The position numbers and the translations under genes are program-made. From positions 1-64,000 of the forward strand of contig JAKLKB010000002.1 of assembly GCA_023150835.1 (NCBI GenBank): a DNA stretch of 64,000 nt. The letters run 5' to 3'. The DNA comes from Myxococcota bacterium (GTDB lineage Bacteria > Myxococcota_C > UBA6777). Shown here one piece after another: positions 6,174-17,827 of the stretch. Positions within the stretch are counted from its first letter, which is position 1; the number at the start of each line of letters is the position of its first letter. A model generated the notes under the pieces. It saw only the letters and a list, made by a program, of their open reading frames with translations, had not been told where the DNA came from and did not search any database.

Positions 6174-6213
6174 CACTGTTGGGCTTGTTGGGACTTGTTG
6201 GGTGGCTCTGCCC

Positions 6214-6452
6214 CATAGGCGTTAGGTGAAGCGGAGGAAAGCCCCCCACCCCGCCCTCCCCCGTGAACAGGGGAGGGAGCGAAAGTCGGAAGCCTCGGGG
6301 ATTTTGTTTTTTCATGACGCACGCTGTATGCACGAAATGCAGACACTGCCCGTTCCAACTTCCCCCCGTTCACGGGGGGATTGAGGGGGGGGAGAAAAAA
6401 AAAGCGATCAAGACCGACTCTACGAGGTTTCCACCTTAACAAGGCGCGTATG
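6214..6452. mobile_element. Family C (IS4-like) MITE inserted in a family D hairpin
   Basis: Ends CATAGGCGTTAGGTGAAG and CTTAACAAGGCGCGTATG; flanks TGGCTCTGCCC and GGACTCTGCCC (imperfect 11-bp TSD); interior nearly identical to 15502-15726. Confidence 0.8.
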
Positions 6453-6592
6453 GGACTCTGCCCCACGCCCCGCAAGGGACTTACGCCCCTTGACCCCGTA
6501 TCGGCGAAGAGAGCATCGGTTTTCACACACAGACGGCGCTGTCGCTTGAAACGACACGAACACGGGGGGTTTTGTCTACTGCGTCAGCGCTT
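6453..6592 (-). repeat. Family D structured repeat (about 130 bp) with a degenerate G-type end
   Basis: CCCCACGCCCCGCAAGGGACTTACGCCCCTTGACCCCGTATCGGCGAAG ... TCGCTTG ... CGAACACGG ... ACTGCGTCAG. Confidence 0.75.
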
Positions 6593-6813
6593 CTGTTTTC
6601 TCGCACACGGGTTTTTTGGCTGCTGCGTCATCTCTCGTATTTTCTTGCGCAGAGCCTCTAGCCATCGCGCCTATCCATCAGACGCCCGCATCGCATCTTG
6701 CCAAAAACCGACAACTCCTCCATAGGAGGATCGCGAAAAATAGGCACTTGTCCGCCAAAGGCTGCGCATCACACGAGAAACGCAACAAGCATTCATCCGA
6801 GGAGTTTTGAGCG

Positions 6814-9479: not shown

Positions 9480-10094
9480 ATGAGCTTTCCCAAACCCTTT
9501 TATCGTTGGCGTCCACACCCTTGGCACGGCTTGAGCGTGGGTCCGCAACCTCCGCGTGTTGTCCATGCCTACATCGAGATCACCACCTACGACAGCGTCA
9601 AGTACGAAGTCGATAAAGAAACCGGCTACTTGCGCGTGGATCGCCCCCAACGCTTTTCCTCTCAACCTCCTGCCCTGTATGGCTTTATCCCCCGAACCTA
9701 CTGCGGAACCCGTGTCGGTCAACTTTCTCCCAAATCTCAGCGCGGTGACGGCGATCCGATGGATATCTGCGTCCTTTCCGAGCGCTCGATCTCCCGCGCA
9801 GAAGTGTTGCTCAACGCCCGTGTCATCGGCGGTTTACGCATGATCGATGACAACGAAGCCGATGACAAGGTGATCGCCGTCCTTGAAAATGACTCCTTCT
9901 GGTCCGATATCGAGCATTTTTCTCAGCTACCCGATGTTTTGATCGATCGCCTCCGACACTACTTTTTGACCTACAAGTCTGTCCCCGGCCAAGAAGCCGC
10001 CAAAGTCGCCCTCGACGGCATCTACGACGCGGACGAAGCCCAACGTGTCGTACAAGCCGCCATGCTCGATTATGTCGATGAGTTCGGCGACTAA
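9480..10094 (+). CDS. ppa: Inorganic pyrophosphatase (family I)
   Basis: HPWHG, KYEVDK, YGFIPRT, DGDPMDI and ADDKVIAV motifs. Confidence 0.95.
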
Positions 10095-10206
10095 TACGAA
10101 ATCCGCTCATCGTGTGATCGCAAAACGTAGGGGCAGACAGGTGTGGCTGCCCGATAGCAGGGCATCTACGCACGACCCTTCGATCACAGATCTTTCGGAT
10201 ATCGTA
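10095..10206. mobile_element. Family A MITE, complete, 3-bp TSD TAA
   Basis: TACGAAATCCG ... CGGATATCGTA flanked by TAA at 10092-10094 (the ppa stop) and 10207-10209; internal GTAGGGGCAGACAGGTGTGGCTGCCC hairpin. Confidence 0.85.
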
Positions 10207-10346
10207 TAAGGCGCTTTCTCGGCTGCGCAGCAGCTTCGCAACCAACGTGACTGATCGTGTCGTTGCGTTTGGCGATCCAGAAAAGGCCGCTGCACCGCTC
10301 TATCCGACGAGTTCCGCCACCATCCCTAAGCAAAGGAGGCCCCGAG

Positions 10347-10997: not shown

Positions 10998-12515
10998 ATG
11001 ATCTTACAGGGTTCCCAGCTTCAACGGGACTTTGCGCTGGAGACAGATGTACTGGTGATCGGCTCAGGCAGCGGAGGGGCCGTCGTTGCCCACGAGTTGG
11101 CACGAGCAGGCCGCGAAGTGGTGATCGTCGAAGAAGGCCGTTATATCCGCCCCGAAGTGTACGGACAATGGCGGCCCTCACAGACGTTGCGGCGGATCGG
11201 TCGAGCGGGCGGAACAACGGTGGCTTTGGGCATCGGAGACTCGCCGACGATCAACATCTTGGCGGGTTCGTGTGTGGGTGGCTCGTCTGTGTTGACGGGT
11301 GGCGTGTGTTTTCGCATCCCCGAAGAAGTCCACGAAGAATGGGTACGAAGTCTCAAAACAACCTCCTTGTCTGCGGAGGCGATGGCTCCGTTTTATGAAC
11401 ACATTGAGGCGATGAGCCATGTAAGTCCTGTGCCGATCGAGATGCGTACGCGAGGGACAGAGCTTTTTGCAAAAGGAGCCGAGCGCCTCGGACGCGAAGT
11501 CTTCCCGATCTCGCGCAATACCAAGGGATGTTGTGGATGTAGCCGCTGCAACTTTGGCTGTCCCAACCAAGCCAAACTCTCTGTCGACTTAACTTTTTTA
11601 CCGAAAGCCCAAGCCGCAGGGGCGCGGATCTTCTCGGACTTTCGGGTGGAACGGATCTTGGTGGAGGGTGGGCGTGCGGTGGGTGCGGAAGGTGTGATCT
11701 TACGCGAACCTGATCGGCGTGCGGCCCACCGCTTTACGATACGGGCCAAGACCGTGGTGATGGCGGCAGGTACGTTGCATTCTCCGTTGATCTTGATGCG
11801 CAGTCGGATCGGTCGGCGAAGTGGTCAGGTGGGGCGTGATATCACGTTGCATCCGGCCTTTCGGGTGGGTGCATTCTTTGACGATCCGATCTACAACTGG
11901 CGGGGAGCCTTACAAGGGGCGTATTGTACGCATCCAACTGACGACCGCTTGATCTTCATCGGGGCTTCTGCGCCCGTCAACTTCTTAACGGCGACTGTCC
12001 CGGGCTTGGGGCCTGCGTGGGTCCAACGGCTGCGCTCTCAGATGCGGCACATGGCGACCTTTGGGGGGATGGTTCATGACAAGGCGGGCGGGCGGATCTG
12101 GACGCGCCTTGGTAGCGAACCCGTCATCACCTATCGGCTCAACCCACAAGACAAAGCCTCGATGCTCGAAGGGATGCGGTTTTTGGCCGAAGCCTTTTTT
12201 GCAGCGGGTGCGCGTGAAGTCTTGCTCCCGATTATCGGGCTTGAACCGATCAAGGACATGGATCAACTTCGCCATCTCGATCTACCGTCGATGCCGGGAA
12301 GTCGGATCGAATGCCTGTCCTTTCATCCGCTCGGTTCTTGCCGCATGGGGGCCGATCCGCACCGCGCTGTGGTCGATGTCGAGGGACAATGCTTTGATGT
12401 GCAAGGTCTGTGGATCGCAGACGGTAGTGTTTTTCCGTCAAGCGTCGGAGTCAACACACAGATCCCCGTCATGACGATGGCTGCACGCACCGCTGCCGCC
12501 ATCTTGGAGCATTGA
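10998..12515 (+). CDS. GMC family oxidoreductase
   Basis: DVLVIGSGSGG FAD motif; CVGGSSV; CCGCSRCNFGC; HPLGSCRMG; ADGSVFPSSVGVN. Confidence 0.92.
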   Translation: MILQGSQLQRDFALETDVLVIGSGSGGAVVAHELARAGREVVIVEEGRYIRPEVYGQWRPSQTLRRIGRAGGTTVALGIGDSPTINILAGSCVGGSSVLTGGVCFRIPEEVHEEWVRSLKTTSLSAEAMAPFYEHIEAMSHVSPVPIEMRTRGTELFAKGAERLGREVFPISRNTKGCCGCSRCNFGCPNQAKLSVDLTFLPKAQAAGARIFSDFRVERILVEGGRAVGAEGVILREPDRRAAHRFTIRAKTVVMAAGTLHSPLILMRSRIGRRSGQVGRDITLHPAFRVGAFFDDPIYNWRGALQGAYCTHPTDDRLIFIGASAPVNFLTATVPGLGPAWVQRLRSQMRHMATFGGMVHDKAGGRIWTRLGSEPVITYRLNPQDKASMLEGMRFLAEAFFAAGAREVLLPIIGLEPIKDMDQLRHLDLPSMPGSRIECLSFHPLGSCRMGADPHRAVVDVEGQCFDVQGLWIADGSVFPSSVGVNTQIPVMTMAARTAAAILEH

Positions 12516-12533
12516 CAGGCTTTTTCTATCTAA

Positions 12534-12649
12534 TAGGACCTACGCAGTCCGATACGAAAAAGGCCAATGTTCGGGCGCGGGCGGTTCGCGAACCGCCCCT
12601 ACAACGTTATGATATCTCAGGGTTTCCCTTTTCAACTGCGTCACTCCTA
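12534..12649. mobile_element. Family G MITE, 5-bp TSD TCTAA, carrying a GTAG-type REP palindrome
   Basis: Ends TAGGACCTACGCAGT and ACTGCGTCACTCCTA; TCTAA at 12529-12533 and 12650-12654; internal GGGCGGTTCGCGAACCGCCCCTAC. Confidence 0.8.
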
Positions 12650-12669
12650 TCTAAGCAAAGGAGCATCTC

Positions 12670-12900
12670 ATGGTGAAGATTTATCTCACCGTTGTTCTCG
12701 GTACGATCCTGTCTTTTTTTGCCGATGTTGCCCCTTGGGGCGGCTGTTGTGGTGGCGGAACCCCCAAACGAGAGATCCCTCAAGACGAGCCTCCTGCCGA
12801 CTCACGCTTGCACAAAACCACACCTACCCGACTTGTCGCCGCCCTCGTGATCCAAAACAAAACGCTCGCTCATCCAGCCAAACAGGCACAACGCTCTTGA
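12670..12900 (+). CDS. Small hypothetical protein with hydrophobic N-terminus
   Basis: AAGGAG RBS; signal-like N-terminus followed by GGCC. Confidence 0.35.
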   Translation: MVKIYLTVVLGTILSFFADVAPWGGCCGGGTPKREIPQDEPPADSRLHKTTPTRLVAALVIQNKTLAHPAKQAQRS

Positions 12901-12951
12901 AAAGATCCCACTTCCCCAAAACCCAACCAACCACTTTTAGCCGAAAAGGAA

Positions 12952-13122
12952 TAGGTGTCACGCAGTAGCCAAAAAAAGCCGTGTTCGCACCCGCCCAAGC
13001 GACAGAGTCGTTGTTTTGAAAGACATCTGCTCTCTTCGCCAACACAGGGTCAAGGGAGCCGCGCTCTATGGCGGGGCGTGGGGTGACACCCCACAAAAAC
13101 CGACCCCCCTGCGTAATTCCTA
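12952..13122. mobile_element. Family G MITE carrying a family D repeat
   Basis: Ends TAGGTGTCACGCAGT and CTGCGTAATTCCTA; flanks AGGAA and AGAAA (4/5 match); D core at 12970-13094. Confidence 0.75.
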
Positions 13123-13140
13123 AGAAAAAAGAGAATGATC

Positions 13141-14658
13141 ATGGAAGAAATCTTAAAGCACTTTGGTCTGACCCAAGCTCATGCAGGCGCTTGCATCGGA
13201 GGCGACCGATGGATCGACACTCCGGGGGCTGCGCTGCTCACGTCGATGAATCCCAGCCAAGGAACTCCCCTTGCAACGGTGCAGATGGCGCATCGCGCCC
13301 AATACGAAGAAGTCGCTCAGGCCGCAACCAGCGCCTTTTCAAGCTGGCGGATGGTTCCCGCTCCCAAACGCGGAGAGCTGATCCGCGTGCTGGGCAACGC
13401 TCTACGCGAAGAAAAAGAACCGCTTGGCCGCTTGGTGTCGCTTGAGATGGGCAAGATCCTTCAAGAAGGACTCGGCGAAGTCCAAGAGATGATCGATATC
13501 TGTGACTTTGCGGTGGGCCTCTCGCGTCAACTTTACGGACTCACCATGCACTCCGAACGCCCGAAACATCGGATGGTTGAGCAATGGCATCCGCTCGGTG
13601 TGGTCGGGATCATCTCGGCGTTCAACTTCCCCGTGGCTGTGTGGGCTTGGAATGCTGCGATCGCTGCGGTCTGCGGTGATTCGATGATCTGGAAACCCTC
13701 TCCCAAAACACCACTGACCGCGCTTGCGGTGCAAAAGATCTGCGATCGCGTCTGCGCATCGTTCGGATACAAGGGCCTCTTTAACTTGATCATCGGCGCA
13801 GACCAAGAAGTCGGCGAAGCCTTGATCAACGATCCCCGTGTCCCGCTGATCTCCGCCACAGGCTCTGTGCGCATGGGCCGCCATGTCGGGCAAGTCGTCG
13901 CCAAACGCCTTGGCCGCTCGATCTTGGAACTCGGCGGCAACAATGCCATCCTCGTCGATGCTTCGGCGCGTCTCGATCTCGCGACCCGAGCGATCTTGTT
14001 TGGGGCGGTGGGGACAGCAGGACAACGCTGCACGTCGACACGCCGCATCTTTGCCCACGAAAGCATCGTCGACGCGCTACTAGAACGTCTGACCAAAGCC
14101 TACGCTTCTGTTCGGATCGGCGATCCGCTGGCTCCCGAAACCTTGATGGGTCCGCTGATCGATGAACAAGCCGTCACGCAGATGATGCACGCCATCGAAG
14201 CCGCAACATCCCAAGGCGGCGAGGTCTTGTGCGGTGGAACCAAGCTCGAACGCCCCGGCCACTTTGTCACACCCTGCATCATCCGTATGCCCGCGCAGAC
14301 CGAAGTGGTGCGCGATGAAACCTTTGCGCCGATCCTCTATGTGATGACCTATTCCACCCTCGAAGAAGCCATCGAACGACAAAATGAAGTCCCCCAAGGA
14401 CTTTCTTCCGCGATGTTCACCAGCGATCTCTACGCCGCCGAGCATTTCTTGTCGCACCAAGGCTCCGACTGTGGGATCGCCAACATCAATATCGGTACAT
14501 CAGGAGCCGAGATCGGCGGAGCCTTCGGCGGAGAAAAAGAAACAGGCGGTGGACGCGAAGCCGGTTCCGATGCTTGGAAAGCCTATATGCGCCGCCAAAC
14601 CAACACCGTCAACGGGTCTCTCGAACTCCCCCTCGCCCAAGGCATCCACTTCGATTGA
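13141..14658 (+). CDS. amaB: Aldehyde dehydrogenase family 7 (alpha-aminoadipic semialdehyde / piperideine-6-carboxylate dehydrogenase)
   Basis: EGLGEVQEMIDICDFAVGLSRQLYG, LELGGNNA, GTAGQRCT and GAEIGGAFGGEKETGGGRE, all characteristic of ALDH7. Confidence 0.9.
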   Translation: MEEILKHFGLTQAHAGACIGGDRWIDTPGAALLTSMNPSQGTPLATVQMAHRAQYEEVAQAATSAFSSWRMVPAPKRGELIRVLGNALREEKEPLGRLVSLEMGKILQEGLGEVQEMIDICDFAVGLSRQLYGLTMHSERPKHRMVEQWHPLGVVGIISAFNFPVAVWAWNAAIAAVCGDSMIWKPSPKTPLTALAVQKICDRVCASFGYKGLFNLIIGADQEVGEALINDPRVPLISATGSVRMGRHVGQVVAKRLGRSILELGGNNAILVDASARLDLATRAILFGAVGTAGQRCTSTRRIFAHESIVDALLERLTKAYASVRIGDPLAPETLMGPLIDEQAVTQMMHAIEAATSQGGEVLCGGTKLERPGHFVTPCIIRMPAQTEVVRDETFAPILYVMTYSTLEEAIERQNEVPQGLSSAMFTSDLYAAEHFLSHQGSDCGIANINIGTSGAEIGGAFGGEKETGGGREAGSDAWKAYMRRQTNTVNGSLELPLAQGIHFD

Positions 14659-14742
14659 TCGGCCTCCCCCTCTGCTGCATCTCCTCCACACCTCTACGCC
14701 CCGTCCTCTCGATCTGTTCTTCTCCTTTGTGGGGCTTTGCCC

Positions 14743-15075
14743 CATACGCGCTAGGTTAGCGCTGTAGACGCTTGAAAAGACACACAAAAAAAAGGATACG
14801 CTTCACGGTGTAAACCTTTTTCCAACAGAGGAGAAAAGCCATGAAGCATACCCCAAAGGAACGCACCTCATCTCTTCTTTTTGAGCAACAACGAACACTG
14901 ATCGAAGAGCTTGCGCAGAAGCACGGCATCTTGAAGCGGAGGAGACAGATCCGCTGCATCGGTGAGCTTCTTTTCATGTTACAACTCGTTGCTTTAGCAA
15001 ATACCTGCTTGCGCACTGCTGCGGAGTTGTTTTCTGGACAAAACAAAACTTTACACGCTTAACAAGGCGCGTATG
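14743..15075 (+). mobile_element. Internally deleted IS4-family element (family C ends)
   Basis: Ends CATACGCGCTAGGTTAG and CTTAACAAGGCGCGTATG; left flank GGGCTTTGCCC; contains a transposase-like ORF. Confidence 0.7.
14841..15062 (+). pseudogene. Truncated IS4-family transposase (N-terminal about 70 aa)
   Basis: GAGGAG RBS; IEELAQKHGILKRRRQI..ELL...LRTAAE resembles IS4 transposase N-termini; the stop codon lies inside the right terminal repeat. Confidence 0.6.
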
Positions 15076-15079
15076 GGGG

Positions 15080-15485
15080 CACTTGGACCAACTCATGCCA
15101 TTCGTTTGCGATCATCCTTCCTACAATATCCGTCAAAAGCGTATCCATAAGCGCCGATGCGGTTTGTTGTAAACGCCCTGTGATTGGGCAGCCACAGGGG
15201 GCACTTGGTCCAACTCATGCCATTCGTTTGTGAGCATCGTTCCTATCATATCCGTCAAAAGCGTATCCAAAAGTGTCGATGCGATTTGTTGTAAACGCCC
15301 TGTGATTGGGCAGCCACACCTGTCTGCCCCTACTTTTTCACTTACTTCATGGACGGAACTCGTAGAAACTGTTTGCTTTGAAAAAAGCAGCCGTCAAAGC
15401 GAACAGTCCGGAGCAGAAACCTCGTTACGCAGGGAAAAAACAGTCGTGTTGTCAGCGAAACGAATCGATTGAGTTGGTCCAAGTG
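15080..15485. mobile_element. Family B MITE, 9-bp TSD GTATGGGGG, with internal 122-bp tandem duplication
   Basis: Ends CACTTGGACCAACTCA and TGAGTTGGTCCAAGTG; GTATGGGGG at 15071-15079 and 15486-15494; left arm repeated at +122. Confidence 0.85.
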
Positions 15486-15501
15486 GTATGGGGGCTGCCC
15501 C

Positions 15502-15726
15502 CATAGGCGTTAGGTTAAGCGCTTGTTGGCCCCCCCACCCCAGCCCTCCCCCGTGAACAGGGGAGGGAGCGAAAGTCGGAAGCAGCGGGGATTTTGTTTT
15601 TTCATGACACACGCTGTATGCACGACGCGACTTCCCCCCGTTCACGGGGGGATTGAGGGGGGGCGACAAAAGAAACGGCGATCAGGCTAGACTATCCGGT
15701 GTTTCCACCTTAACAAGGCGCGTATG
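15502..15726. mobile_element. Family C (IS4-like) MITE with perfect 11-bp TSD GGGGCTGCCCC
   Basis: Ends CATAGGCGTTAGGTTAAG and CTTAACAAGGCGCGTATG; TSD at 15491-15501 and 15727-15737; two internal G/C-rich hairpins. Confidence 0.9.
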
Positions 15727-15772
15727 GGGGCTGCCCCTACGTTTTGCGATCACACGCTCTGCGGATCTCGTA
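15727..15772. repeat. Family A right end
   Basis: GGGGCTGCCCCTAC...CGATCACAC...CGGATCTCGTA followed by TAA. Confidence 0.75.
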
Positions 15773-15854
15773 TAACCTTACACTTCGCCGCCTCAATCGC
15801 CAAACAAGCGGCTCAACAAACAAACTTTCCCTCTCAACCCCAAGGAGTTCCAAG

Positions 15855-16226
15855 ATGCCCCGAAACATCGTGATCTTGTTTTTCGCGCTCATCGCTCTCT
15901 CAACGTTTTCTCCTCGCGCTTTCGCTCTCAAATGCGCCGAAGAAAGCTTCGAAGACAAAGTTCAGCGCGCTCCGACCGTCTTTATCGGCGAAGTTGTTTC
16001 CATCGCCCCCGCTCGTAAAACCCCCGATGTCTCCCGCAACAGCGTCCGCTACCAAATCCGCATCACCCGCATGCTCAAGCGCGATCCCAAACGACCACTC
16101 AAACAAGGCAGCCTTTTTTGGGTTCAACCCCACTTCTTCCGAAACAATCTCAACGGAAAAATCGGAAAACTCTATCTCTTCTTTAACACCTCTTGGCTTT
16201 GTCGATGGCCGATCCCCATCCGCTGA
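15855..16226 (+). CDS. Small secreted protein
   Basis: AAGGAG RBS; signal peptide ending AFA; C...APTVFIGEV pattern seen in TIMP/NTR-like bacterial proteins. Confidence 0.6.
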   Translation: MPRNIVILFFALIALSTFSPRAFALKCAEESFEDKVQRAPTVFIGEVVSIAPARKTPDVSRNSVRYQIRITRMLKRDPKRPLKQGSLFWVQPHFFRNNLNGKIGKLYLFFNTSWLCRWPIPIR

Positions 16227-16339
16227 TCTCTCCCTCTACTCTCCCTCTTCTCTCCCTCTACTCTTCCTCTTCTCTCCCTCTTCTTTTTCTGCCTTCTTTC
16301 CGTGTATTCCGTGTATTCCGTGGACTCTTCTTTTTCTGC

Positions 16340-17827
16340 CTACAAATTCCGAGGCCCCGTTGGGTCGCCTGCTGTGGGTGCCTCATGTTGGTGGCTTTGG
16401 AGGTTCCATGTAATCGCCAACAGCAAGGTCGCCAACACACCGCAAGCCAGAATCAAATAGATCACATTCAGCCAAGCCGCTTCGACCCCCAATGTGGCTT
16501 GCTGTTGCTTCAACAAAGCCCCAAATCCTTTGGCTTGGACTGTTCGGCCAATATAACCAAACAATCCGATGAAACCTGCCGCTGCGCCGATCGCTTTTTT
16601 GGACGTGAGATCCAGCGCAAGGATCACGATCAAGTTAATTACGGGGTAAATAAAAAAACCAATCGTCGCCAGCATCGCCATATCCAACCAAAGATAACCG
16701 GGCGGGGTGAACACCATCACCACAAATGCCCCGATAATCGGGATCATACACAACGTCGCGATCATCCCGCGCCGCCCACCCATCCGATCCGACAACCATC
16801 CCAACAAGATCGTCGACGGGATCCCCCCAAACTCCAAGACCAAGATCGCCACACCACCACTCGCCAGCGTCGCTTGTTTGACTTCCCGAAGATACATCGG
16901 ACCCCAATCCAACATACAATAGCGGGCAATGTACGCAAAAAAATTCGCAAACGCCAACAGCCACACATATTTGTTTGTTAGCACATAGTCAAACAAGATC
17001 TCTCGAAAACCAAGTTCTCGTTCTTCTTGTTTTTCGCTTTCTGCTTCGGTAATTTCTTTGTTTTTTTGTTCCGCGCTTTCTCTTGTCGCTTCGTCTGCCT
17101 TGACGGTCTTTTCATTCCATATTTTTTCTTTTTCAAATGCGGCGCGCTTTTTCAATGCCTCATATTCTTCGATCGGAGGAAGTCCCACAGATTGCGGCGT
17201 ATCGCAAAGCCGCCAAAACAGATACACCGCTCCCACCATCGACAACAATCCCGGAACCACAAAGGCATATTGCCATCCTCCGTAAGCCGTCACAGCCCAC
17301 GCCGCCAACATCCCCGCGATGCCGCCCCCAACGTTGTGCGACGTATTCCACACACTGAACATCAAACCGCGTTCAGACTTGGTGAACCAATGCCCCATAC
17401 TTCGCCCACACGGAGGCCACCCCATCCCCTGAATAAACCCATTCAACGACCACAAAAACAAGTGCATCTCATAACTGGCCACCCCACCAAACAACAGATT
17501 ACAGAGAGCCGTCAAAAACAGCCCAAACGCCATAAACACACGGGGATTGCTGCGATCAGACAAGGTCCCCATCACAAACTTGCCGACACCGTAGCTGATC
17601 GCCGAGATCGCAAGGATGTTGCCGATCATCGCGTGGTCGTAATGCAGGGCATATTCGATATCTTTGGCGACCACAGAAAGATTGTTGCGGACAAGATAAA
17701 AGACACCATAGCCAAGAAACGTCGACTCCATCACGCTCCAACGATAACGCGGATACAGGCGAGCAGCTTCTTGATCAGGAAGTCGAGAGATCGCAGGCGC
17801 AGGGCGAAAAGGATTTTTGGATAGCAT
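16340..17827 (-). CDS. glpT: Glycerol-3-phosphate transporter (MFS, OPA family)
   Basis: YLVRNNLS, SDRSNPR, QGMGWPPCGR, WNTSHNVGGG, DTPQSVGLPPIEEY and GAAAGFIGLFGY motifs. Confidence 0.9.
   Translation of the reverse strand: MLSKNPFRPAPAISRLPDQEAARLYPRYRWSVMESTFLGYGVFYLVRNNLSVVAKDIEYALHYDHAMIGNILAISAISYGVGKFVMGTLSDRSNPRVFMAFGLFLTALCNLLFGGVASYEMHLFLWSLNGFIQGMGWPPCGRSMGHWFTKSERGLMFSVWNTSHNVGGGIAGMLAAWAVTAYGGWQYAFVVPGLLSMVGAVYLFWRLCDTPQSVGLPPIEEYEALKKRAAFEKEKIWNEKTVKADEATRESAEQKNKEITEAESEKQEERELGFREILFDYVLTNKYVWLLAFANFFAYIARYCMLDWGPMYLREVKQATLASGGVAILVLEFGGIPSTILLGWLSDRMGGRRGMIATLCMIPIIGAFVVMVFTPPGYLWLDMAMLATIGFFIYPVINLIVILALDLTSKKAIGAAAGFIGLFGYIGRTVQAKGFGALLKQQQATLGVEAAWLNVIYLILACGVLATLLLAITWNLQSHQHEAPTAGDPTGPRNL

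Follow-up and report, generated by a model that had tools for sequence, protein, structure and literature searches.

An intergenic spacer packed with relics of IS186-like and other small mobile elements at GC-rich palindromes in an uncultured sludge bacterium

Two kinds of described system come close to the locus treated here, a 1-kb intergenic spacer of an uncultured sludge bacterium in which small elements, named D, E1, B, C and A below, stand at GC-rich palindromes. IS186 of Escherichia coli, an insertion sequence (IS) of the IS4 family (IS186A/B/C, gene insL, the same as IS421), targets GGGG(N6/N7)CCCC in either orientation, with 54-59 such sites in E. coli according to the part of PMC5009759 used here. 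Other ISs recognise repetitive extragenic palindromes (REPs), namely ISRm22 (IS4 family), ISPpu9/10, ISPa11, ISRm19 (IS110) and ISPsy8 (IS3), as laid out in the part of Tobes and Pareja (2006; PMC1525189) on which we draw. The spacer lies in the first 64 kb of contig C235, hereafter the window, of the draft source genome G000 (239 contigs, 7.56 Mb, 55% G+C), whose phylum is represented by six genomes in the genome collection; it was compared with a sister species (G001), 90-96% identical to G000 within syntenic blocks, and with a further genome (G002).

Sequence reading together with a repeat finder revealed that the spacer between its two genes is packed with small non-coding relics of mobile elements. 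We read it, with a probability of about 0.82, as an insertion hot spot in which relics have accumulated at GC palindromes, E1 and C being IS186-like; the relics would have accumulated there because the palindromes are preferred by two kinds of DDE transposase. An earlier reading of the spacer from its letters (the sequence-only reading) had held that no named system was known to have so full an architecture, which was too strong, since both the IS186 target (PMC5009759) and REP hairpins as IS targets (PMC1525189) are published in the parts of these papers used here. Target choice by IS186 and IS insertion into REP hairpins are thus already known; the stack itself is real and well parsed, and its main actor is an element of the IS186 kind, rich in MITEs (miniature inverted-repeat transposable elements) and having a known type of target choice. 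The literature search found no paper on IS186-derived MITEs, judged by title, and nothing bacterial on nested MITEs together with REPs. Plant MITEs nest preferentially in other MITEs, and E. coli has mosaic clusters of bacterial interspersed mosaic elements; the present spacer may be likened to these, small non-autonomous elements likewise piling up within each other at favoured sequences into mosaic intergenic blocks, and its general architecture would then have precedents.

Layout of the spacer

From left to right, the stack opens with a D-type GC hairpin, TGGGGCTTTGCCCC (14730-14742), which forms the left flank of E1 and is missing the body of its D element; the complete hairpin TGGGGCTTTGCCCCA occupies 14730-14744, and its final CA doubles as the first two bases of E1, completing ...CCCCA. 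E1 (14743-15075, forward strand; inverted arms I5) is an internally deleted IS186-like IS of the IS4 family that retains both inverted ends, CATACGCGCTAGGTTA... on the left and ...CTTAACAAGGCGCGTATG on the right. It is followed by B (15080-15485, forward strand), a 406-bp composite MITE with 16-bp perfect inverted ends CACTTGGACCAACTCA (repeats I1 and D1), which is enclosed by two copies of the 9-bp target duplication GTATGGGGG; the left copy (15071-15079) consists of the last 5 bases of E1 plus GGGG, and the right copy was read at 15486-15494. Next comes C (15502-15726, forward strand; repeats I3 and D2), a 225-bp MITE without an open reading frame (ORF) and with E1-type inverted ends, flanked by the 11-bp target duplication GGGGCTGCCCC, itself an A-type core hairpin, at 15491-15501 (repeat D4) and, read from the sequence, at 15727-15737. 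The stack closes with the right arm of an A-family MITE (15738-15774), carrying the terminal inverted repeat (TIR) GGATCTCGTA at 15762-15771 and the T-N-A flank TAA at 15772-15774; repeat matches cover 15731-15775 in a BLASTN search of the genome, and the matching left arm of this A element is absent. No Rfam family matched in the spacer at E up to 0.1.

Each feature named in the sequence-only reading was recovered in its place, including the perfect 16-bp ends of B with the 9-bp duplication on both sides and the perfect 11-bp duplication at both flanks of C. Its picture of a nested stack of four families needs amending: the elements are stacked, but they stand side by side at one hairpin cluster and are not strictly nested, only B occupying a junction of element and hairpin, and E1 and C make up one family, leaving three insertion families plus A and D.

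E1 is without a duplication of its own, its flanks being mismatched (GGGCTTTGCCC on the left versus GGGGCTGCCCC on the right). With a half of D type to its left and one of A type to its right, E1 is not a simple insertion, and the mismatch is best read as the trace of a recombination or deletion event that involved two IS copies, of which one lay in a D hairpin and the other in an A core. Such an event would also have removed the left arm of A and the body of D. Hybrid flanks of ISRm22 have likewise been attributed to recombination between copies in the part of PMC1525189 used here.

The stack is bordered upstream by an aldehyde dehydrogenase gene (13135-14658, forward strand; PF00171, E = 1.3e-132) and downstream by a small gene without known family (15855-16226). 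Just beyond, at 16300-16330 of the window, there is a short run of a 9-bp minisatellite unit of the GTACATTCC type.

Target choice and kinship of the E1/C family

E1 and C are assigned to one family because they have the same inverted ends: over the final 18 bases the two agree completely (repeat D2), and at the left both show variants of CATA(C/G)GCG(C/T)TAGGT. Ends of this family were counted throughout G000 with an 18-nt pattern, a looser first pattern having drawn about 250 chance matches. Among the 361 ends found in this strict count, 286 adjoin GGG-N5-CCC and a further 21 do so at one mismatch, while 53 do not and one lies at a contig edge; many of the 53 look like chance matches of the pattern. 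The longer motif GGGG-N5-CCCC is completed at 240 of the 361 ends, the chance rate being 1.2e-4 per position. We found 73 pairs of adjacent ends, 72 of them evaluable, and the two flanks were identical at exactly 11 nt in 49 of the 72, at 10 nt in one pair, and at 5, 7, 9 or 12-15 nt in none. The 49 exact pairs comprise 19 distinct duplication sequences, and the hairpin arms are therefore target DNA and not part of the element. In 36 of the 49, the duplication together with the terminal C and G of the element restores full GGGG-N5-CCCC on both sides, and four pairs of C-family elements are spaced by exactly one 11-bp pad, as we call a hairpin that offers the motif. C itself contains no internal target motif.

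The genome holds 907 GGGG-N5-CCCC sites, compared to 64 of the control CCCC-N5-GGGG, and 236 of the 907 adjoin a C-family end. Estimated occupancy differs by class of site, amounting to 15% for D-type hairpins, 5% for A-type cores and 1% for other GGG-N5-CCC sites. Insertions show no orientation bias relative to D (27 right ends versus 26 left ends), as expected since the target is palindromic. An account by survival alone, in which the link to hairpins would reflect insertions that persisted in harmless DNA, was rejected on the ground that the insertions use one exact register within the palindrome.

A BLASTN search of the genome with C gave 240 segments, of which 42 are full length, and best pairwise identity among complete copies ranges from 85.6% to 99.3%, the window copy being 92% identical to the nearest complete one. 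The 42 full-length matches, the 11-bp duplication and the lack of a transposase gene mark C as a MITE. Longer copies of the family (661-959 bp) contain minisatellites or tandem repeats and no genes; copies swollen by 9-bp units of the GTACATTCC type and similar ones were seen at C117:8900-10100 (L003) and on C56 (L229, 12880-13070).

The link to a transposase is made by E1, which retains the first 66 transposase codons within a 73-codon ORF (14841-15062; protein P0001). P0001 is identical at 62 of 66 positions (94%) to residues 1-66 of P0003, a 438-aa protein and one of six (372-442 aa, five of them 438-442 aa) encoded on metagenome contigs of about 1.5-2.2 kb. The deleted IS4-like element of the sequence-only reading is accordingly of the IS4 family, as had been said, and not separate from C, whose ends it shares. 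P0003 scores 32.8 bits against PF01609 (DDE_Tnp_1; cut-off 23), a result that concerns the parent-type protein, of which the window retains only codons 1-66. NF033592 (transpos_IS4_1) is the best NCBIfam model for P0003 (5e-23), for P0008 and for E. coli InsL1 alike. BLASTP aligns P0003 with InsL1 over 343 residues (3e-12), with shared blocks LFDGS/LVDGT, ADRAY/ADRGF and YRCRWQIE/YRLRWQIE that cover the first two catalytic aspartate regions and YREK. As in IS186, a single DDE transposase carries Y-x2-R-x3-E-x6-K, the motif reading YRCRWQIELGIKRWK in P0003 and, aligned to it, YRLRWQIELAFKRLK in InsL1.

Ends and target were compared with those of IS186 as well. C-family ends (CATACGCGCTAGGTTA... 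and CATAGGCGTTAGGTTAAGCG) resemble those of IS186A from E. coli K-12 (CATAAGCGCTAACTTAAGGG), which also show CATA.GCG with ..TAAG; 16 of the first 20 bases match the left end of the C family, and E1 and C both start with the CA(T) of IS186-like members of the IS4 family. IS186A resides in GGGGATCACTCCCC in K-12, where annotated boundaries give a duplication of 10-11 bp, and both systems use a G-run/C-run palindrome in both orientations, as far as the part of PMC5009759 used here describes IS186. Compared to the same source, the family differs from IS186 in its N5 spacer, against N6/N7, and in its 907 target sites, against 54-59 in E. coli. It differs also in protein length (438 aa for P0003 versus 370 aa), in a fixed 11-bp duplication that holds three G and three C so that both flanks regain the motif, and in being found as relics and about 180 MITE copies only, in an uncultured host.

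A similar comparison can be made with the REP-recognising ISs, which likewise enter an abundant, GC-rich palindrome between genes at a fixed position on its axis of symmetry, as given in the part of PMC1525189 used here. Those ISs are autonomous, number 4-10 copies and make duplications of 3 or 6 bp (ISPsy8, ISRm22; same part of PMC1525189), whereas we mostly observe MITEs (361 ends) with an 11-bp duplication, and at least one pad carrier, A, is a TIR-bounded MITE and not a classical REP. Non-autonomous derivatives are known for another IS of the family, MIC231 being derived from IS231. The IS231 subgroup has ends CAT-------AA--TAA--- and 10-12-bp repeats (Table 1 of PMC2266710), to which C and E1 conform at CAT, at TAA and in the 11 bp, but according to De Palmenaer et al. 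(2008; PMC2266710) it hardly occurs outside the Bacillus cereus group. The main text of that paper does not name IS186, and we assign C and E1 to no subgroup.

Among distant transposase relatives, fetched as 160 loci from genome and metagenome contigs (21-53% identity in the best segment), 39 loci (L033-L175) have IS186-type inverted ends CATA(A/G)GCG..TAA. The IS copies with such ends lie on contigs labelled Acidobacteriota, Verrucomicrobiota, Planctomycetota, Nitrospira, Chloroflexota-type and others, and judged by these ends the IS186 kind appears far more widespread than its E. coli namesake. Of 35 evaluable copies, eight have an exact 11-bp repeat and two an exact 10-bp repeat; ...CCC on the left together with GGG... 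on the right was seen in 16, and several have 11-bp GGG-N5-CCC duplications, GGGCTGAGCAC and GGGGCTGATCG being among the duplicated sequences.

The mechanism we propose is as follows. An IS186-like transposase (438 aa in full-length relatives) would recognise the G-run/C-run palindrome GGGG-N5-CCCC, probably as a symmetric complex, and cut the two strands 11 bp apart, by which GGG-N5-CCC would be duplicated; the C that starts and the G that ends the element would then regenerate GGGG-N5-CCCC at both flanks. In G000, A (a MITE, about 115 bp long) and D (a longer repeat) provide hundreds of copies of the motif, and the MITEs of the E1/C family would be mobilised in trans by an IS that is missing from the assembly. 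B is a separate MITE that makes 8-10-bp duplications and favours loops, both those in A cores and those in a 20-bp palindrome. In the spacer, B would have landed at the junction of the last five bases of E1 and the hairpin, and C in the right-hand hairpin, in either order.

Several observations weigh against this reading. The identity of P0003 and InsL1 is only 23%, and with 81.7 and 64.7 bits P0003 and P0008 fall below the NF033592 cut-off of 115 bits, which InsL1 (133.3) exceeds. Searches of G000 with PF01609, NF033592, InsL1 (tblastn) and the relic proteins brought up no full-length transposase gene of the E1/C lineage, but only relics, at C174, C126, C214 and C120, the other matches being unrelated ISs. 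The ends of the parent IS are deduced; the 438-aa homologues, 92% identical, were compared as proteins. An exact duplication is absent from 23 of the 72 pairs in G000, E1 included, and an exact repeat from 25 of the 35 distant relatives. The low rate at generic GGG-N5-CCC sites may in part reflect selection against insertions into genes. Excision footprints, taken as the same 11-mer twice within 12 bp, numbered zero. The three comparisons with G001 that involve C are all imperfect through loop differences or extra rearrangement, and neither G001 nor G002 offers an empty site for the stack locus.

With regard to the missing gene, a collapsed IS contig of about 1.5 kb may have been filtered out of the assembly, since the shortest contig retained in G000 measures 2,391 bp. 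In run X9, E1 is traced as far as 15039 by a contig with a depth of 123, which runs on for another 224 letters, the unique flanks having a depth of 14; by eye the continuation resembles the full-length gene as seen at C174, which is only a hint, as depths sum over organisms. At C174 a second relic of the transposase gene occupies 243-650 (P0002). We also observed that the relic there (C174:1-2150, L010) is fused in frame into a 563-codon open frame, the opposite strand holding a long cysteine-rich repeat coding region.

Element B and the hairpin carriers A and D

B matches 300 BLASTN segments in the genome, and its terminal 16-mer occurs 45 times at up to one mismatch (reversed control 0) and 50 times at up to two. 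These 50 ends are distributed over A1 loops (15), A2 loops (13), the centre of GGGCGGTTCGCGAACCGCCC (9) and other places (13), several of the last being degenerate A cores or other hairpins. At least 37 of the 50 B ends thus lie in repeat palindromes, and together with the 286 of 361 C-family ends at GGG-N5-CCC this bears out the insertion bias towards hairpins that the sequence-only reading had supposed. Duplications recur across the genome as well, as the exact 11-bp repeats in 49 of the 72 C-family pairs and as duplications of 8, 9, 9 (with one mismatch), 9 and 10 bp in five of the six complete B copies, the sixth having none. With 50 ends and such duplications, B qualifies as a MITE. At the centre of GGGCGGTTCGCGAACCGCCC, B inserts with an 8-bp duplication. 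GGGCGGTTCGCGAACCGCCC is a perfect 20-bp palindrome and represents a fifth repeat family, with 123 copies at up to two mismatches, for example at C12:15450-15470 and 15530-15550 (L231).

The composite structure of B in the spacer results from two tandem 122-bp left-end units (15080-15201 and 15202-15323; 92% identical, repeat D1), each made up of a 42-bp B end and an A-like left arm; a 10-mer resembling the A-type TIR lies at 15122, and a complete A2-type core (15308-15333) comes after the second unit. B therefore carries A-derived pads. Tandem left units of this type occur here and at C64, and they look like the outcome of B inserting into a B-borne A core with subsequent loss of one right part. 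A 407-bp composite, 94% identical, is present at C97:25885-26291 with an 8-bp duplication of its own that differs from the one in the spacer, and the composite therefore moved as a unit. A search of G000 and five relatives gave no IS with B ends; where B-like ends enclose other interiors, no transposase was found, and the B-like ends in G001 are all at contig ends. The CA terminus and the 8-10-bp duplications of B would be in keeping with the IS4Sa row of Table 1 in PMC2266710.

The core of A, GGGCAGCCACAGGGGGCTGCCCCTAC, has 333 copies, and a CCTGT variant has 129. It occupies the centre of an element, about 115 bp long, with inverted ends TACGA(A/T)ATCC, and 341 TIR pairs enclose a core, of which 136 have identical 3-nt flanks, T-N-A in 133. 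TIR pairs, T-N-A flanks and one clean empty site identify A as a MITE: for the copy at 10086-10208 of the window, G001 reads gacTAAGGCGC where G000 reads gacTAA[A]TAAGGCGC, the A element being given in brackets. The D-type hairpin, TGGGGY-N3-RCCCCA, ends a repeat whose conserved part is about 120 bp long and which has 338 oriented copies, and the D-type motif GGGY-N3-RCCC is found at 793 sites in the genome.

Comparison with the sister genome demonstrates that A, D and C turn over between the two species, the A case being the only clean one. G001 lacks the entire D element at about 6179-6622 of the window, together with the C MITE lodged in the hairpin of that element. At C56:12430-12670, the single D hairpin of G001 corresponds to hairpin-C-hairpin in G000, which is 252 bp longer (241 + 11), with differing loop letters in the three hairpins. 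At C57:9932-10174, G001 has an intact, unoccupied A element and G000 a C MITE with an exact duplication, G000 being further rearranged on one side. Elsewhere on C57 (about 5370, L228), one and the same TTCA point is occupied in G000 by a D element with a C MITE nested in it and in G001 (C402, about 5338; L233) by an A element, two families having inserted there independently.

The empty site that the sequence-only reading asked for exists in clean form for A but not for the stack. G001 is not syntenic from 12270 to 16353 of the window, and in G002 different DNA lies downstream of the orthologous gene. Synteny with G001 halts at about 12270, the end of G001:C295, and resumes at 16353 (G001:C348:8378), where a different gene lies upstream. 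The block of aldehyde dehydrogenase gene and stack is therefore either elsewhere in G001 or unassembled. A comparable stack at C12 (about 15349-15664), in which two palindrome repeats stand with the fragment of a C end and the arm of an A element, is missing from G001, and such stacks therefore recur.

Alternative readings and significance

Several other readings of the spacer were weighed. One holds that the hairpins are part of the mobile unit, whose true ends would include the GGG...CCC arms, with no targeting at all; a palindromic target next to an element with terminal C and G does allow the boundary to be shifted by one or two bases. We regard this as next to impossible, since loop letters vary among copies and yet agree between the two flanks of one copy, giving the 19 distinct duplications, and one C-family copy has a non-palindromic duplication, ACCCTCACCCC, without GGG at its right tip. 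In addition, the distant relatives duplicate GGGCTGAGCAC and GGGGCTGATCG, and 587 D-type and 418 A-type pads are free of any C end. It is also very unlikely that the stack is an assembly artefact in which a short-read assembler joined repeat copies of different loci. Many of the 239 contigs of this draft do terminate within the repeats, and no Logan contig spans the whole stretch. Junctions were considered bridged when Logan contigs extended at least 31 letters on either side, in four runs from four studies (X1, X2, X3 and X9). By this rule the junction of hairpin and E1 is bridged in two of the four, X1 (14300-14846) and X2 (14300-14775), the flank contig extending to 14754 only in X3 and X9. 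The junction of E1 and B is crossed in all four runs (14939 to 15092-15116) with 12-36 letters on the B side, X1 alone reaching 31, and no bridging piece for B|C or C|A was among the Logan contigs listed for the four runs. Both target duplications are moreover exact and correctly placed around B and around C, and the 406-bp form of B is found again at C97. Joints seen in Logan contigs were considered as empty sites and dismissed, their intervening letters differing from the locus, so that they come from other repeat copies.

Movement by a different enzyme would be an alternative to DDE transposition: the hairpin repeats, stack included, would be REPs or REP doublets forming hairpins (REPINs), moved single-stranded by a REP-associated tyrosine transposase (RAYT) of the HUH type. 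The genome does have one RAYT-like gene (C113:53266-54030; L206 967-1731, minus strand), which matches NF047646 at E = 9e-16 with 58 bits, below the cut-off of 80, and five tandem 43-bp A-type cores lie directly downstream of it, on one side only (L206 620-830). Its frame is, however, broken up and swollen by in-frame insertions of IGQAQ-type repeats and two A-like cores. Movement of the RAYT/IS200 type is not known to leave a signature of inverted ends and direct repeats, whereas C, B and A all have TIRs and flanking direct repeats, and E1 encodes part of a DDE transposase. C and B cannot be explained in this way, and we consider such an origin of the stack highly improbable.

A further reading extends the hot spot and does not replace it. 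According to the self-reinforcing network envisaged by the sequence-only reading, A, D and B, of different transposase families, would spread pads that C/E1 and B use, and each hit would make more of them. Several observations favour it: A and D carry pads and are themselves mobile or indel units, B harbours cores derived from A and seems to have landed in an A core that B itself carried, both here and at C64, the full motif is rebuilt on both sides in 36 of 49 exact insertions, four C-family pairs lie one pad apart, and the similar stack at C12 is missing from G001. On the other hand, duplications can account for about 118 of the 907 GGGG-N5-CCCC copies, a number equal to half of the 236 sites next to an end. 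No pad lies inside C, so that the claim of MITEs carrying hairpins for other elements applies to A, D and B but not to C. Use by C of pads carried by B was a one-off, as 1 of 286 C-family ends lies within 200 bp of a B end, and this one is in the window. The differing duplication lengths of 3, 8-10 and 11 bp point to different transposases, and it is from these lengths that separate families for A, B and D were deduced, a single transposase having been identified and the search of G000 having brought up no partner of A, B or D. What stands of the idea is therefore that A and D spread pads, that two kinds of element target them and that the motif is mostly rebuilt; positive feedback would go beyond this. 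The network would be a reasonable but unproven extension of the hot-spot reading, and we give it well under even odds. An unlikely, still wider version would be a positive-feedback ecosystem in which A and D seeded about 1,250 GC palindromes, the IS186-like and B transposases became tuned to them, and hits produced twin targets and, from these, stacks. Seeking palindromes and regenerating the target would then perhaps characterise, as a general trait so far undescribed, an IS186 clade that spans phyla, and would drive the clustering of hairpin repeats in bacterial genomes.

Read as an insertion hot spot, the mosaic spacer is explained in ordinary terms, and IS186, a textbook element of E. coli, is placed within a much wider clade with conserved ends and conserved target choice. 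Site-directed insertion could possibly make use of a transposase whose target is a defined 13-bp palindrome. The locus also provides a testable case of one set of selfish elements making habitat for another, and it is relevant to the question why hairpin repeats form clusters in the intergenic DNA of bacteria and why draft assemblies of such genomes break at the places they do.

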